DNA from: a virus
Taxonomy: Duplodnaviria > Caudoviricetes
Virus record (IMG/VR): IMGVR_UViG_3300036859_000729
Span: 1 to 51,082 of that record
Reading direction: 5' to 3' (one strand)
Length of the DNA: 51,082 bases
The position numbers and the translations under genes were made by a program. Shown here piece after piece: positions 180 to 36,149 of the stretch. A model generated the notes under the pieces. It was not told where the DNA came from. It saw only the letters and a list, made by a program, of their open reading frames with translations, and searched no databases. Within the stretch, counting starts at the first letter, position 1. The number at the start of each line of letters is the position of its first letter.

Positions 180-387
180 GCGTCGTCGCAACGGTGGAGT
201 GGCGGGCGAATTGGAGGATCGTCGGCGCCGAGGTGTTGGCGAAGCCGCTTACCTGAATCTCCTTCACGTCGATCAGTTGGGTGGACGAGCCGCCCTTGAC
301 CGCCATGTAGGTTGCATTCGTCAGCGCCGTCGTGTCGGCCGTCGCCGTGGGCGTCCAGTTCACTGCTTGGAAGGACCGGTAAGCCAT
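1..387 (-). CDS. Putative virion protein, 5' part (169 aa gene spanning the circular join; continues 50903->50781)
   Basis: ATG at 387 with AAAGGAG SD; MAYRSFQAVNWTPTATADTT... reads in frame into the ...HIIYEPK* ORF at the other end. Confidence 0.8.
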   Translation of the reverse strand, partial: MAYRSFQAVNWTPTATADTTALTNATYMAVKGGSSTQLIDVKEIQVSGFANTSAPTILQFARHSTVATTPTALAAPNSDGPMHPSTAALAAAPVTFVAAATGGQRSAVTTDARLNLGLNAWGGIIRWIA

Positions 388-17495: not shown

Positions 17496-18540
17496 GCTGA
17501 GCAAGTACTTCGGCGCCGCCCTTGACGGGAAGACGGATGACACGAAGGCACTCCAACTGGCCCTCGCGGTGGGAGGGGACCTAGGGCAAGATGTCGTCAT
17601 CCCGGCCGGGGTCACGGTGGCTTACAGCTCGGCTCTCGACATCACAGGGATCGAGCTGGTCGGCGGGATCGGAGCGACTCTCCACGCCCTCGCCGCGGAC
17701 AACATTGCGCTCATCCTCAATGGGACGGAGCCTGCCGTCCGCAATCTGCGCCTGACGGGGATCAAGCCTCCGGGGCGACTGAGGAGTGGAGTGAGCGCCC
17801 GTGTCTTCGTGCGCGGGGCGAGCGATTTCACCGTCAGCGGAATGAGGATTGAGTCAGGGGCCAGCTCTGGCATCTTGATGGAAGAAGCAAGCAGTGGCAC
17901 TGTCTCCGAGAATTCGATCGGCGGCCAGCTTGCCGACTTCATCCACATCTCGAATCGAAGCCACGATATTCTCGTCGAGGAGAACACCTGCGACGGGGCC
18001 ACCAATGACCCCGGGACAGGAGATGATGGCATCGCGGTGGTGAGCTATCGTCGCCAGGGCGCCGTCTGTTACAGCATCGTGGCGAGGCGGAATACGATTC
18101 GCAACCTCAAGGGCGGCCGGGCGATGTCCATCGTGGGTGGGAGCCACGTCACCTACGAGAACAACATGCTGACGAACAACCCGCACGCAGCTGGGCTGTA
18201 CATCTGCCGCGAGAAGGGCTACGACACGTTCGGAGTGACAAGTGTGACGGCGTTCCGAAATACCCTCGTCGACTGCGGGAACTCCGCAGAGCGCGATCAC
18301 CCCGCCATCATGCTTTTCACGGATGATGTGGAGCCGAACCGTGATGTAAGCATCGTGGGGAATCTCGTCCTCTTCACGGAGAAGCTCGCGTCGCGGGACG
18401 GAGTGTTTCTCTACGGCCAGCGACAGACCGAGGTCCGCGTCGAGGGAAACCTCGTGGTCGGAGCGAGGAAAGACTATCGCATTGGGACCCCAGGGGTGTC
18501 TGTTGTGGCGTATTCCTCTGGGGCTGTGGGGGTGATATGA
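17476..18540 (+). CDS. Right-handed parallel beta-helix protein (pectin lyase-like), no virion anchor
   Basis: FGA..DGKTDDTKALQ.A N-cap; repeated ..N.I.. rungs; TGDDGIAV. Confidence 0.8.
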   Translation: MNLPPIKLSKYFGAALDGKTDDTKALQLALAVGGDLGQDVVIPAGVTVAYSSALDITGIELVGGIGATLHALAADNIALILNGTEPAVRNLRLTGIKPPGRLRSGVSARVFVRGASDFTVSGMRIESGASSGILMEEASSGTVSENSIGGQLADFIHISNRSHDILVEENTCDGATNDPGTGDDGIAVVSYRRQGAVCYSIVARRNTIRNLKGGRAMSIVGGSHVTYENNMLTNNPHAAGLYICREKGYDTFGVTSVTAFRNTLVDCGNSAERDHPAIMLFTDDVEPNRDVSIVGNLVLFTEKLASRDGVFLYGQRQTEVRVEGNLVVGARKDYRIGTPGVSVVAYSSGAVGVI

Positions 18541-32114: not shown

Positions 32115-32537
32115 ATGAACGTGAGCAACGAAAGCGCGCAAGTCGAGTGGCCCCGGATGGCTCTCCTCCGCGAGGCCCTGGCGATCACCTCGAAGGACAG
32201 GCACACAGCGTACGGCCAGCCGGAGGACAACTTCCAGAACATCGCCGACAACTGGAATGTCTACTTGCGACAGAGATTTGGGGGGTCAGCGCCCTCGCTC
32301 AACTCGATGGACGTGGCATATCTGATGATTCTGATGAAGATGGCCCGGCTGGCGACGAACCAGACACATCGGGATAGCCTCGTGGATGTCGCAGGGTATG
32401 CGGCCTGCGGGGCGGACTGTCAGGAGAAAGCCGGGAGGCAAGCAGCAGTTGGCCAGGAATCGAGACTGACTCCTGGGTCCTGGGTCACAGTGTCGGCGGG
32501 ATCAGAACTCGGTCAGGCACTCGGGACGCTTCGGTGA
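32115..32537 (+). CDS. DUF6378-family protein
   Basis: L.EA......DR...YG.P..NF..IA..W..YL...DVA..M...K.AR......DS.VD.AGYA. Confidence 0.8.
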   Translation: MNVSNESAQVEWPRMALLREALAITSKDRHTAYGQPEDNFQNIADNWNVYLRQRFGGSAPSLNSMDVAYLMILMKMARLATNQTHRDSLVDVAGYAACGADCQEKAGRQAAVGQESRLTPGSWVTVSAGSELGQALGTLR

Positions 32538-33568
32538 TCGATGTCACTCGCTCCGGGGAAGGCCCCTCCCCTGCCCAGATCATGCTCGTTGGAGAGTATT
32601 GGGGTGAAGACGAGCGCCGTCATCAAGCCCCCTTCATGGGCGCCTCGGGAATGGAACTCAACCGCATGCTCCACGACGCCGGCGTCATGCGGAGCGAGTG
32701 CTACGCCACCAACCTCTTCAACGCGGTGCCGCCCTGGGGGTTTAAAGGAGTAGCGACGACGAAGAAGGAACTCACCGCCGCCCATCAAGCCTTCGGCCCG
32801 AAGATGGTCCTGCCGGAGTTCACCGCGGCCCTCATCCGGCTCAACCGCGAGATTTCCCTCGTCCAGCCCAACGTCATCATCACCTTGGGCACCGAGCCCA
32901 CCCTCGCCCTGACTCAGAAGTGGGGCATCGCCCGGTGGCGGGGGAGTCAACTTACCTCCTCCCTCGGCGTCAAAGTCATCCCCACCTATAACCCGGCGGC
33001 GGTCCTTCGCGAATTCTCTCTCCGCCCTACCGTGGTCCACGATCTCCGCCGTGCGGCTCGCGAACGCGCGACGAAGGAGTACACGAATGTCCCACAATGG
33101 CGCTTCAACATCCGTCCTTCCGCCGAAGGGTCACTCAAGGTCCTGGGAGACCTTCTGGCTCAAGTCGATTCAGGCGCACTATCCTGGATCGATTTTGATC
33201 TGGAAACCGCATACGGTCACATTACTTGTGCCGGCCTTTCCTGGAGCCGCACCGAGGCCATCTCAATTCCCTTCACCACCGGCTTCCTCGGGTACTTCAA
33301 TGCGGAAGAGGAAGCGGCGGTGGTGTATGCGCTGTATCGTCTCCTGACCCACCCCCGAGTGAAGGTGAGGGGACAAAACCTCCTCTACGACGCGCAATAT
33401 ACCTGGCGGCATTGGCACTTCGTCCCCAGGGTGGCGCAGGACACGATGATTACTTTCCACACGTGTTACGCGGGGATGAGGAAGAGTCTCGATTTCCAGG
33501 CCAGCCTGCTCTGCGACCACTACGTTCAGTGGAAACCGGATCGCGAGAATTGGAAGGAGGGAGGATGA
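32534..33568 (+). CDS. UDG family 4-like domain + N-terminal part of the 3'-5' exonuclease (first part of split PolA)
   Basis: GEG...A.IMLVGE..G..E....PF.G.SG..L; PTYNPAAVLR; ExoI FDLET; ExoII GQNLLYD; DTM. Confidence 0.85.
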   Translation: MIDVTRSGEGPSPAQIMLVGEYWGEDERRHQAPFMGASGMELNRMLHDAGVMRSECYATNLFNAVPPWGFKGVATTKKELTAAHQAFGPKMVLPEFTAALIRLNREISLVQPNVIITLGTEPTLALTQKWGIARWRGSQLTSSLGVKVIPTYNPAAVLREFSLRPTVVHDLRRAARERATKEYTNVPQWRFNIRPSAEGSLKVLGDLLAQVDSGALSWIDFDLETAYGHITCAGLSWSRTEAISIPFTTGFLGYFNAEEEAAVVYALYRLLTHPRVKVRGQNLLYDAQYTWRHWHFVPRVAQDTMITFHTCYAGMRKSLDFQASLLCDHYVQWKPDRENWKEGG

Positions 33569-34944
33569 GCCGCCACGAAACAGAAGACGATCTCTGGGCA
33601 TACAACGCTCAGGATTGCGTCCGCACGCGGGAGGTCGGGGAGGTCTCCGCCGCCGCCGTCACCTCTCTGGGGCTCGAGGGTCCCGAGGCGTTCCAACAAG
33701 CTCTCTTCTGGCCCGTCCTCTGGGCCATGCAACGGGGCGTGCGGGTGGACGAGAAAGCCCGGGCGAGGTTCTCTGGCCAGCTCCTAGAGGAGATGGACGA
33801 GCGGATGGGGTGGCTCACCGCGGTCCTCGGCCACTCCCTCAACCCCGGGTCGCCGAAGCAGATGTGCACCCTGTTCTACGACGACTTGGGGCAGAAGAAG
33901 AATTTCAAGAAGTCGACGAAGCCCGGCATCCCTGGCGGTCTCTCGTGCGACAAGGAAGCCCTCCTCAAGATCGGGAACCGCGAGCCTCTCCTCCAACCCC
34001 TCATCCAGAAGATCGAGGAGTATCGCTCCCTCGGCGTCCTCCTCAAAACCTTCGTCCTCGCCCCCGCCGACATAGATGGACGGATGCGATGCTCCTACAA
34101 CATCTGCGGCGCGGAGACCTTCCGCTTCTCCTCCTCCAAGAACGCCTTCGGCTCCGGCGGGAATATGCAGAATATTCCGAAGGGCGGGGAAGATGACGAA
34201 GGCCTTGTCCTCCCCAACATCCGGGAGATGTATATCCCCGACGAAGGCTTCACCTTCTTCGACACCGATCTCTCGAAGGCGGATCTCCGCATCGTGACGT
34301 GGGAGTCGGGGGAGGGGGAAATGAAGGCCCTCCTCCGCGCCGGAAAGGACCCCTATGTGGAAGCAGCCCGCGAGTTCTACAAGGACCCGTCTCTCAAGAA
34401 AACCCGCGACGACGGATCCGAGCATCCTCGCTATCGAACGTTCAAATCCTTCGCCCACGGTAGCCATTACCTCGGCACGCCGCACGGCCTCTCCCGGCGC
34501 CTGGGTCTTACAGTCCATGAGGTTGATCGAGTACAAAAATGGTACTTTGGTCGTTTCCCTGCGATTCCGAAGTGGCAGCAAGATTTCAAAGCTCAACTTC
34601 GTGCTAGGAGATACGTTCAAAATATCTTCGGATATCGCCGATACTACTTTGATCGAATTGATGAGAGTACTGAGCGAGAGGCCATTGCCTGGCTTCCACA
34701 AAGTACGGTGGCCTGTTACATCAACCGGATCTGGATGAATCTGTGGGAGCAGACAGATCGAGCCCTGATGCAGGTCCTGATGCAGGTGCACGATTCGCTG
34801 GCCGGCCAGTTCCCCACGCATAGGAAGGCCGAGGCGCAGGCGGCGTTGAAGCAAGCGGGGGAGATTGTGCTTCCCTACGCGGACCCTCTCGTCATCCCGG
34901 TGGGGGTGAAGACAAGTGAGGTAAGTTGGGGGCACTGCGGGTGA
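33565..34944 (+). CDS. polA: Family A DNA polymerase (ExoIII + polymerase domain)
   Basis: ExoIII YNAQD; motif A DLSKADLR; motif B KSFAHGSHY; motif C QVHDS; AAGGAGG SD and ATGA overlap. Confidence 0.9.
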   Translation: MSRHETEDDLWAYNAQDCVRTREVGEVSAAAVTSLGLEGPEAFQQALFWPVLWAMQRGVRVDEKARARFSGQLLEEMDERMGWLTAVLGHSLNPGSPKQMCTLFYDDLGQKKNFKKSTKPGIPGGLSCDKEALLKIGNREPLLQPLIQKIEEYRSLGVLLKTFVLAPADIDGRMRCSYNICGAETFRFSSSKNAFGSGGNMQNIPKGGEDDEGLVLPNIREMYIPDEGFTFFDTDLSKADLRIVTWESGEGEMKALLRAGKDPYVEAAREFYKDPSLKKTRDDGSEHPRYRTFKSFAHGSHYLGTPHGLSRRLGLTVHEVDRVQKWYFGRFPAIPKWQQDFKAQLRARRYVQNIFGYRRYYFDRIDESTEREAIAWLPQSTVACYINRIWMNLWEQTDRALMQVLMQVHDSLAGQFPTHRKAEAQAALKQAGEIVLPYADPLVIPVGVKTSEVSWGHCG

Positions 34945-36149
34945 CACGCCGTCTCCCTGACTGGCTCTCTGCCTACGTCCGCTTCGCCGGCGTCACCGAG
35001 GCGCCCAAACTGATGCACTTCTTCGCCGGCGTCTCCGCGATCGCCGGCGCCCTGCGCCGCAAGGTGTGGATTGACATGAAGAGGTTTCAATGGACCCCAA
35101 GCTTCTATATCGTGTTCGTGGCCCCGCCTGGGATTGTTGCCAAGTCGACGACGGCCGACATTGCGATGGACCTGCTGAAGCACATCCCTGGTGTGAAGTT
35201 CGGTCCGGATGTGATAACGTGGCCTGCGCTTGTGTCTGCGTTCGCGTCGGCGGGAGAGAGCTTTCAGTTTGGCGACGAGTGGTTCCCGATGAGTGCCCTG
35301 ACACTTGTTGCTTCGGAACTCGGCAACCTAATCAACCCGCAGGATCGAGACATGGTGAACCTCTACATCACGCTCTGGGATGGAAGGAAGTCGCTTGAGA
35401 AGGTGACAAAAACGTCGGGGAATGACTCGGTTGAGGCGCCGTGGATCAACATGCTTGGATGTACGACGCCGCACTGGATTGCAGACAACATGCCGCCGGC
35501 AACGGTGGGAGGGGGATTCACTTCCCGCTGCGTCTTCGTCTACGCGGAGAAGAAGGAACAATTCGTCGCCTACGTGGATGAGGTGGTGAGAGATGGGGAT
35601 GAGGAGGAGCGACTTGCTCTCATCCACGACCTTGAACACATTGCCCTCAACCTCACCGGGCCCTACACCATCCTCCCCGAGGCCCGAGCGTGGGGGCGGG
35701 AGTGGTACGAAGATGTCTGGACGAACCGCCCACCCGAGTTGGAGGATGACCGCCTCGACGGCTACCTAGCGAGGAAGCAAACCCACCTCCACAAACTCGC
35801 GATGGTGATGGCGGCTTCGGCGCGAGATGAAATGGTCGTGACGAAGGAGGATCTGATGATGGCCAATCAGATGCTACGGTCGGCGGAGGGCGACCTGGTG
35901 AAGGTGTTCTCGCGGATTGGGCGGTCAGAAGACGCCGCGCAGGTCGACCGCTTCGTCAGCTACATTCGCCGGCGGGGCGAGTGCCCTTACTCCGAGGCCC
36001 TTCGCGCCGTCCAGGATCATTTCATCGACCTGCGTGACTTCGAAGGCATGCTCAATGGGCTGCTGCGGAGCGGCGTCCTCAAGCTCGTCGGGAATGGGGC
36101 AGGGATACTGCTGAAGTATGCCGGGGAAGAGAACCCGAAACCCACGTGA
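34941..36149 (+). CDS. DUF3987-like ATPase (putative helicase)
   Basis: WL..Y.....TEAP..H; variant P-loop APPGIVAKST; SELG; LWDG; GGFTSR; C-terminal winged-helix-like region. Confidence 0.7.
   Translation: MTRRLPDWLSAYVRFAGVTEAPKLMHFFAGVSAIAGALRRKVWIDMKRFQWTPSFYIVFVAPPGIVAKSTTADIAMDLLKHIPGVKFGPDVITWPALVSAFASAGESFQFGDEWFPMSALTLVASELGNLINPQDRDMVNLYITLWDGRKSLEKVTKTSGNDSVEAPWINMLGCTTPHWIADNMPPATVGGGFTSRCVFVYAEKKEQFVAYVDEVVRDGDEEERLALIHDLEHIALNLTGPYTILPEARAWGREWYEDVWTNRPPELEDDRLDGYLARKQTHLHKLAMVMAASARDEMVVTKEDLMMANQMLRSAEGDLVKVFSRIGRSEDAAQVDRFVSYIRRRGECPYSEALRAVQDHFIDLRDFEGMLNGLLRSGVLKLVGNGAGILLKYAGEENPKPT

Follow-up and report, generated by a model that had tools for sequence, protein, structure and literature searches.

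The window analysed here is the full record of a virus (IMG/VR IMGVR_UViG_3300036859_000729; 51,082 bp, rated complete), a phage genome from a soil metagenome with a GC content of 62.6%. Two adjacent open reading frames in it, ORF1 and ORF2 (Table 1), together read as a family A DNA polymerase (PolA) fused to a uracil-DNA glycosylase (UDG), with the chain interrupted inside the 3'-5' exonuclease domain. The DEDDy exonuclease motifs of Pol I are ExoI (DxE), ExoII (NxxxD) and ExoIII (YxxxD). All three were found, shared out over two chains, ExoI and ExoII in ORF1 and ExoIII in ORF2, and the UDG-superfamily domain sits N-terminal to the exonuclease domain, the arrangement that marks a UDG-fused PolA (family-4 UDG domain). 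ORF1 ends in ...QWKPDRENWKEGG, i.e. ...NWKEGG, and ORF2 begins with MSRHETEDDLWAYNAQD..., its first 12 residues preceding ExoIII. The match of ORF2 to DNA_pol_A (PF00476) scored 143.4 bits against a cut-off of 34.3, and a profile of 54 ORF2 homologues matched Klentaq and Klenow chains with E values of about 1e-33 to 1e-37. The Pfam exonuclease model PF01612 remained below threshold on ORF1 but was listed for a few relatives. A single PHROG DNA polymerase profile covered both ORFs contiguously, with profile positions 480-788 on ORF1 and 804-1233 on ORF2. The original prediction, made from the letters alone, had described ORF1 as UDG with ExoI and ExoII and ORF2 as ExoIII with the polymerase in the -1 frame, and the ORF reading, Pfam and PHROG all agree with that description.

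The junction between the two genes, gaaggagggaggATGAgcc, holds the start codon of ORF2 (ATG, 33565-33567) and the stop codon of ORF1 (TGA, 33566-33568), and ORF2 lies at -1 relative to ORF1. The full Shine-Dalgarno sequence and the ATGA that had been predicted are both present, and the overlap, an arrangement typical of translational coupling, suggests that the two genes are translated in a coupled manner. As also predicted, no intron, intein or HNH gene was found at the window junction, where the ORFs overlap by 4 nt and Rfam gave no match, and HNH genes of relatives (described below) gave no tblastn match anywhere in the window (best E 0.18). Overlaps of 4 nt had further been claimed throughout the genome. 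Examples of ATGA or GTGA were indeed found at 18537, 19342, 23602, 34941 and 32534-32537, but the claim for the whole genome was checked only roughly, with a crude gene chain that over-called minus-strand ORFs and was used only for example overlaps.

Table 1. Features of the two-gene polymerase locus in the window, and of related loci (last eight rows).
Feature	Position	Strand	Basis or detail
ORF1, 344 aa; N-terminal subunit, UDG-like domain and first two thirds of 3'-5' exonuclease domain	32534..33568	+	GTG start
UDG-superfamily domain, ORF1 aa 8-162	32555..33019	+	Pfam PF03167, E 7.4e-18
ExoI FDLET (within WIDFDLET), ORF1 aa 221-225, D222 and E224	33194..33208	+	sequence reading
ExoII QNLLYD (within GQNLLYD), ORF1 aa 281-286, N282 and D286	33374..33391	+	sequence reading
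Shine-Dalgarno-like AAGGAGGGAGG inside last ORF1 codons (K-E-G-G), immediately 5' of ORF2 start	33554..33564	+	sequence reading
ATGA, ORF2 start codon overlapping ORF1 stop codon, 4 nt	33565..33568	+	sequence reading
ORF2, 459 aa; C-terminal subunit, ExoIII helix and thumb, palm and fingers of family A polymerase	33565..34944	+	ATG start
ExoIII WAYNAQD, ORF2 aa 11-17, Y13 and D17	33595..33615	+	sequence reading
Family A polymerase catalytic domain, ORF2 aa 68-432	33766..34860	+	Pfam PF00476, E 1.2e-41
Upstream neighbour, DUF6378 protein, stop overlapping ORF1 GTG	32115..32537	+	PF19905, E 7e-28
Downstream neighbour, DUF3987 protein	34926..36149	+	PF13148, E 5e-13
HNH-type insert, L012/L090			184 aa
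HNH-type insert, L016			145 aa
HNH-type insert, L029/L030/L148			122 aa
HNH-type insert, L142			137 aa
HNH-type insert, L151			139 aa
Second break (P0130, P0132, P0133, P0135, P0142, P0147, P0208, P0221, P0232, P0237, P0238)	equivalent of ORF2 aa ~200-209, ~34160-34190		relatives
In-frame insertion (P0006, P0048)	ORF2 aa ~199-200		relatives
In-frame insertion (P0040, P0065)	ORF2 aa ~300-308		relatives

The start of ORF1 is ambiguous between the GTG at 32534, which forms a GTGA with the upstream stop (32534-32537), and an ATG at 32582, 16 codons later, which the database gene call uses (P0121, 328 aa). The longer ORF1 is favoured, since homologues of 344-350 aa span all 344 aa.

In the UDG-like domain, the window has Asn153 (32990-32992, YNPAA); 53 of 61 split-form relatives have His (IHPAA) at this place, and 7, the window included, have Asn. 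The first UDG motif reads GEYWG in the window as against the usual GEA(W/P)G of relatives. The glycosylase of the window phage may be inactive, given a presumed role of this His that is in part taken over from the text of PMC10201439 on other polymerase clusters.

Recurrence of the split in homologues

A sequencing or assembly error, or a fresh pseudogene in this one genome, has to be weighed for such a locus, because a single-base indel would look exactly like the split in the window and the genome is a metagenome assembly; a 1-nt assembly error was among the alternatives raised originally. Contigs from another assembler (Logan), made from two public soil-metagenome runs (50,933 nt at depth 53.7 and 50,931 nt at depth 26.4), agree with the window at every position of 32400-35100 and leave no gap. 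Reads at 33550-33570 had been named as a place to look, and the sequence there is identical at contig level.

The split also recurs at the same spot. Among the best 120 ORF2 homologue clusters (55-100% identity, the window's own counted in), 69 are of at most 500 aa with ExoIII within the first 47 residues, and 60 of these have it within 16 residues; 2 have the same start with a variant motif, 3 are truncated, 8 are of other lengths, and the fused form, of 756-804 aa and including UDG (PF03167 and PF00476), accounts for 38. The best 120 ORF1 homologues were taken in the range 189-602 aa. Of these, 82 end in ...WKP(D/E)(K/R)xxWKxGG as in the window and 20 in a second terminal type, ...SNKxGA (102 of 120 together), 11 are cut elsewhere, inside the polymerase domain, and 7 are other. 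The split homologues stem from many independent assemblies and sources, and the same stop/start layout and terminal peptides are found in dozens of clusters at 50-80% identity.

We fetched 160 loci (80 from IMG/VR and 80 metagenome contigs, some contigs being in both collections; L numbers below). The alignment of homologues that had been proposed as a check returned both forms, 126 of the 160 loci being fused and 29 split at the ExoII-ExoIII loop, with 5 lacking the N-terminal part. The polymerase halves are adjacent in all 29 split loci. The polymerase is fused in the annotated phages MW202489.1 and Microcystis phage Mel-JY34. Since the contigs are identical and the split recurs in homologues, assembly error was rejected; with catalytic residues invariant in both halves (given below), an error or fresh pseudogene is scarcely credible.

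Frameshift, intein and intron

The original prediction had also offered a programmed -1 frameshift. Near the end of ORF1, such a ribosomal frameshift would yield a single polymerase of ~800 aa. ORF2 does lie in the -1 frame, and this frame is open from 33226, ~340 nt upstream of its ATG. There is a strong internal Shine-Dalgarno sequence near the ORF1 end, and internal Shine-Dalgarno sequences can stimulate frameshifting; a single-tRNA slip on G-GGA is conceivable from the sequence. However, no X-XXY-YYZ slippery heptamer was found in the ORF1 frame before the stop when the window sequence was read, and no stable RNA structure was found at the window junction (z +1.19; 184 of 200 shuffles folded as well). 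Nor is the frame relation conserved. In 30 split rows including the window, the halves abut in 13 (7 at -1, 5 at +1 and 1 in frame behind a stop) and are 109-531 nt apart in the remaining 17, so that relatives with the same junction peptides have their halves in any of these relations, or separated by other genes. ORF2 homologues retain a start codon of their own, with a purine-rich ribosome-binding site: the ATGA arrangement is present likewise in L045/L154, other relatives have TGAtATG, TAAcATG, TAATG or TAAcccATG, and GGAGG-like purine runs stand 5' of the ORF2 start in most other abutting relatives. As the frame relation varies and neither a heptamer nor a stable structure is present, a conserved programmed frameshift is very unlikely.

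A split intein (halves of ~100 and 35 aa) was rejected, since the two ORFs together are colinear with fused polymerases and exceed them by only ~5-10 residues; Pfam gave no match to a Hint or intein family in ORF1 or ORF2. A group I intron was likewise rejected: the window has no intervening sequence, and in relatives the HNH ORFs fill nearly all of the inserts. A scan of 12 loci (90,205 nt), 11 of them relatives with an insert, gave 0 Rfam matches at gathering score.

Conservation and co-folding of the two chains

D222 and E224 of ExoI and N282 and D286 of ExoII, together with Q281 and L284, are invariant in 61 of 61 stand-alone ORF1 homologues. Y13, N14 and D17 of ExoIII are invariant in 54 of 54 stand-alone ORF2 homologues and also in 60 of 60 mixed split and fused forms.

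Co-folding of both chains, another of the checks put forward originally, gave an ipSAE of 0.92 for ORF1 with ORF2 (runs 0.91, 0.92 and 0.92) as against 0.01 for the best control. The models had ~200 contacts, at least 91% of them common to the runs, and the partner pLDDT was 91. In the predicted interface, ORF2 residues 7-56 lie against ORF1 218-335, both motif regions included; ORF2 residues 10-25 touch ORF1, and D222 and E224 of ExoI are within the interface. In calibration, 58 of 80 solved complexes and 2 of 110 mismatched pairs came up to this mark, counts that are only rough since own alignments were supplied for each chain.

The AlphaFold2 model of a fused homologue (P0017, 801 aa) had a pLDDT of 90.8 and its best PDB match was the Klenow fragment of E. 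coli Pol I (8oo6_A, E 4.4e-31, TM 0.80 on target); the Klenow-like fold, with exonuclease, thumb, palm and fingers, was judged on P0017 and not on the window's own chains. In this model, the equivalent of the junction is a coil (343-351) that is directly followed by the long ExoIII helix (352-379), and the block 341-350 has a pLDDT of 72 as compared to >90 on both sides. Since the junction equivalent falls in coil, the break would be in a loop at the surface, where two new chain ends would not have to upset the fold.

The conservation and the models support a genuine polymerase of two genes, in which both chains are needed to form the DEDDy exonuclease site; the heterodimer with a proofreading site assembled in trans, as originally proposed, is thus in keeping with the recurrent split, the invariant residues of both halves and the co-fold. 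It could be argued instead that the halves no longer cooperate, ORF2 being a polymerase deficient in exonuclease and ORF1 either a UDG-like protein that acts alone or a degenerate one. Exonuclease-less family A polymerases do exist, as described in the text of PMC10201439 for T7-like pol-only genes and CCPol, and the Asn of the window in place of the usual His would suit a degenerate ORF1. On the other hand, the invariance of ExoI and ExoII in 61 of 61 ORF1 homologues and of ExoIII in 54 of 54 ORF2 homologues is unexpected for a dead site, and the confident co-fold and the adjacency of both genes in every split locus speak for a common function, which leaves two non-cooperating proteins quite improbable.

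Genes occupying the junction in relatives

The inserts in L012, L016, L029, L142 and L151 match the PHROG HNH endonuclease phrog_3377 with E values of 9e-28 to 5e-38, and the HNH-type insert proteins are 39-55% identical to one another. L161 has a 47-aa C-terminal remnant of the HNH-type gene at the junction. Small ORFs are present there in L023/L134, L101, L108, L140 and L160, and those of L023, L101 and L108, when scanned, gave no family match. Caulobacter phage Kuura has two small ORFs between the polymerase halves.

Comparison of related loci showed insert differences of 413 nt (L133/L142), 215 nt (L107/L108), 109 nt (L143/L161) and 394 nt (L035/L151), all placed precisely between the stop of the first half and the start of the second. 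The pairs L133/L142 and L107/L108 are close relatives.

Two further observations concern the gap. The 215-nt insert of L108 is flanked by a repeat, AATGAA, which is single in L107; this fits precise gain or loss of a small ORF via a short direct repeat that includes the stop/start overlap. At L025:3643-3987 (identical in L138) the gap holds a 115-aa YAcAr/SLOG gene (PF10686, E 5.6e-07; phrog_289, E 2.7e-25).

Junction types and recombination

The fused loop reads ...YWKDDGKTWxxxxGEDQLWxYN in essentially all 94 distinct fused junctions. The signature of the window type, ...QWKP[DE][KR]xxWKxGG* / M..HETE[ED]D.W.YN, was found in 0 of these 94, and the 23 distinct split junctions are of at least six types. 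A FastTree tree was built on the polymerase part of 136 distinct rows, of which 111 are fused, 13 abut and 12 carry an insert. On this tree the split or fused state needs 15 changes, at least 12 of them being forced by well-supported branches. An approximately unbiased (AU) test on 63 rows (all 25 split and 38 picked fused; columns from residue 61 on) rejected a single clade for the 15 window-type alleles (difference in log-likelihood 935, p 7e-51), and 9 changes were needed. As judged from these trees, the window junction type is scattered over polymerase lineages that are not each other's closest relatives, and the AU test indirectly supports recombination around the junction. In a tree of the 140 aa before the junction, the split alleles seem to form nearly one clade (5 changes). 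Homing endonuclease genes at recombination boundaries are reportedly the subject of one study.

One pair of loci carries a more direct trace. L029 (split, with HNH gene) and L046 (fused) have 100% identity over ~1,300 nt, from ~160 nt past the junction to the end of the alignment. The first ~480 columns of the alignment, which lie ~600-1,100 nt upstream of the junction, are 78-100% identical (mostly 92-100%). Close to the junction identity is lower, at 48-83% over the ~600 nt that precede it and ~45-65% over the ~100 nt that follow. Read from the alignment, the difference is a recombinant patch that carries stop, HNH gene and start. Homing of free-standing endonucleases co-converts flanking sequence in the same pattern, as set out in the text of PMC2988022.

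Comparison with known split polymerases

The nearest published case within family A, to go by the text of Czernecki et al. 2023 (PMC10201439), is that of S-SBP1-like T7-type cyanophages, in which exonuclease and polymerase are on separate genes and which was called the first PolA split. There, as here, a phage family A polymerase is found in two adjacent genes by gene fission without intein or intron; a constitutive frameshift was dismissed via relatives, and the two chains, when co-folded with AlphaFold, overlay the uninterrupted relative and leave their new termini exposed. The S-SBP1-like split is a single fission by +1 frameshift between domains, and no mobile gene is reported for it in that text. 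In contrast, the polymerase studied here is a UDG-fused PolA cut inside the exonuclease domain, between ExoII and ExoIII, with several junction types and with HNH genes or other ORFs in the gap of relatives.

Genes in pieces are described for T4-like phages, namely nrdA with mobE in Aeh1, gene 60/39 with mobA in T4, and gene 43 of Aeromonas phage 25 with a seg gene as compared to 43A/43B of phage 44RR (Edgell et al. 2010, PMC2988022; PMC3045599). According to the text of PMC2988022, in these cases too an essential gene of replication or nucleotide metabolism is carried on two ORFs whose products must reassemble, some of the phages, though not all, have a free-standing HNH or GIY-YIG gene between the pieces, and flanks are co-converted; there, as here, the endonuclease may have made the split or have invaded an existing one. 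Here the contiguous gene was found in relatives, and an endonuclease gene between the pieces was found in relatives but not in the window. Unlike the T4-like cases, which the same text gives as family B polymerase or ribonucleotide reductase, the gene here is a family A polymerase; the cut crosses a catalytic domain and would leave a composite DEDDy site, known from sequence and models; and the split is widely spread over uncultured phages with several junction types.

The family B polymerase of PhiKZ is, by the preprint text (PMC13648687, bioRxiv), a stable 1:1 complex of gp82 and gp50 with both activities shown. As proposed for the window pair, the two chains share one active site; in PhiKZ it is that of the polymerase, to which one chain contributes D562 and the other D426. 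That enzyme differs in belonging to family B, in being split in a palm insertion, and in having genes that are not adjacent and no homing endonuclease; it is known from structure and assays, and the window pair from sequence and models. By analogy, the PhiKZ polymerase shows that a composite active site can work.

UDG-fused PolAs are described for N4-like phages (cluster 17) and for SPO1/SP15-like phages (texts of PMC10201439 and PMC13697223), and the window polymerase is likened to them by domain content. A split UDG-PolA is not mentioned in the text of either paper, supplements aside (the word 'split' occurs 0 times in the latter). In OM43 phages PolA is cut inside the polymerase domain, with a small ORF (text of PMC10580990), and both these and HMO-2011-type phages (text of PMC9038755) have other polymerase architectures. 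An ExoII-ExoIII split is not described in the texts on Caulobacter phage Kuura (PMC9959647), OM43 phages (PMC10580990) or HMO-2011-type phages (PMC9038755). Over the literature searched, supplements not covered, we found no ExoII/ExoIII cut and no split UDG-PolA, split PolAs being at other positions only.

A probable gene in pieces at a homing-endonuclease hot spot

We consider it probable, at about 0.8, that the locus is a gene in pieces at a homing-endonuclease hot spot, i.e. a two-gene UDG-fused PolA of which the window represents the endonuclease-free state. The polymerase would be broken in a surface coil of its exonuclease domain, with ORF1 and ORF2 translated separately and their translation coupled through the Shine-Dalgarno sequence in the last four ORF1 codons and the ATGA overlap. 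The chains, to go by conservation and co-fold, would reassemble non-covalently into a Klenow-like fold, in which the ExoIII helix at the N-terminus of ORF2 packs onto the core that ORF1 forms with ExoI and ExoII, to give a composite proofreading site. In relatives the junction is filled by free-standing putative HNH genes, a decayed remnant or other small ORFs; an endonuclease insertion may either have created the split or have entered an already split gene, and the junction type presumably moves between polymerase lineages by recombination. A selfish-element history would explain this architecture better than an adaptive one.

Several points weigh against this interpretation. The window's link to homing rests on its relatives, because the window itself has no endonuclease gene or remnant, and the HNH label of the relatives' inserts in turn rests on PHROG annotation, the cleavage activity of these proteins being putative; Pfam gave no HNH match for the HNH-type inserts and only weak helix-turn-helix matches. 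The junctions of L051 and L074 resemble simple indel fissions of the fused sequence, without an endonuclease. The group for the AU test was set by motif, but after sight of an earlier tree. The 140-aa tree includes the trait's own columns, its last 26 residues, and 8-15 changes are counted once these are taken out; the clustering in that tree comes mostly from these residues, so that long co-conversion tracts are shown for one pair only (L029/L046), and the nearest DNA relative of the window is only 69% identical at the protein level. Separate translation, heterodimer formation and exonuclease activity are what we infer from the sequence. Since many single-chain polymerase structures have been solved, the co-fold pass amounts to likeness to a known fold and not to proof of binding. 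The agreement of assemblies is one of contigs, a level at which rare variants and raw-read indels are invisible, and the two runs may themselves be the source samples of the window.

The split might instead be kept because it is useful, either by allowing a variable exonuclease to polymerase ratio, the tunable fidelity that had originally been suggested, or by protecting the gene from re-cleavage by the homing endonuclease. In many lineages the split outlasts loss of the endonuclease gene, as the abutting junctions without inserts indicate, and at the junction the DNA of split alleles departs from the sequence that fused genes conserve, a change that could destroy a target site. However, the ATGA overlap and the ribosome-binding site inside ORF1 suggest that synthesis of the two chains is coupled and near-equimolar and not under independent control, and nothing in the data favours a role in tunable fidelity. 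Family A polymerases need the exonuclease domain for stability, according to the text of PMC10201439. Because ORF2 supplies an integral helix of the exonuclease fold in the co-fold, it would probably be unstable without ORF1. Persistence of the split may also be neutral, since re-fusion takes a precise event. Retention for usefulness is thus unlikely, and we return to the gene in pieces.

An extension of that explanation is more tentative. The junction of stop, HNH gene and start may be a mobile cassette that homes, without an intron, into fused UDG-PolA genes of unrelated phages and makes a two-chain polymerase of each, the split staying behind as a scar after loss of the endonuclease; we put this somewhat short of even odds. 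The scar left by a lost endonuclease would perhaps also be immune to cleavage. If the cassette is real, a selfish element sets the quaternary structure of an essential replication enzyme in many environmental phages, and all stages of its cycle would be on view in nature: fused, split with HNH gene, split with remnant, and split abutting as in the window.

Naturally split polymerases reveal at which places the chain of a complex enzyme can be interrupted; here the interruption falls between catalytic motifs of the proofreading site and yet is apparently kept under selection in many lineages. Such pairs may serve as natural models for building family A polymerases from two pieces, in which proofreading could also be controlled in vitro by adding or omitting a subunit. 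The fused, occupied, decaying and empty split alleles, with the recombinant pair, also allow free-standing homing endonucleases to be followed through their life cycle in a clean comparison.

Annotation, other breaks and neighbouring genes

Public records widely name the N-terminal halves 'uracil-DNA glycosylase (family 4)' or 'DNA polymerase', and list the C-terminal ones as 'DNA polymerase I' or 'DNA polymerase-1'. Because the halves carry separate labels, the two-gene enzyme goes unrecognised as one unit, and such split labels can mislead polymerase-based phage surveys.

A second recurrent break was observed inside the polymerase domain, in 11 of the 120 best ORF1-side homologues (Table 1); these proteins of 538-556 aa end in ...NLQN(L/I)PKGD(E/D)(A)*. 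The polymerase domain is also cut in Vibrio phage vB_VspS_VS-ABTNL-3, with a 184-aa ORF between the pieces. Some split-form ORF2 homologues are of 757-777 aa and have in-frame insertions of ~285-300 aa at two sites, one of which coincides with the second break. To judge from sequence these insertions are probably inteins; that of P0040 had a weak LAGLIDADG_3 match (E 0.008, below cut-off).

Besides the two flanking genes listed in Table 1, a ParB-methyltransferase is a further neighbour of the window polymerase genes. The fused polymerase of Mel-JY34 also has a DUF3987 protein next downstream, and an adenine methyltransferase lies near the fused polymerase of MW202489.1.

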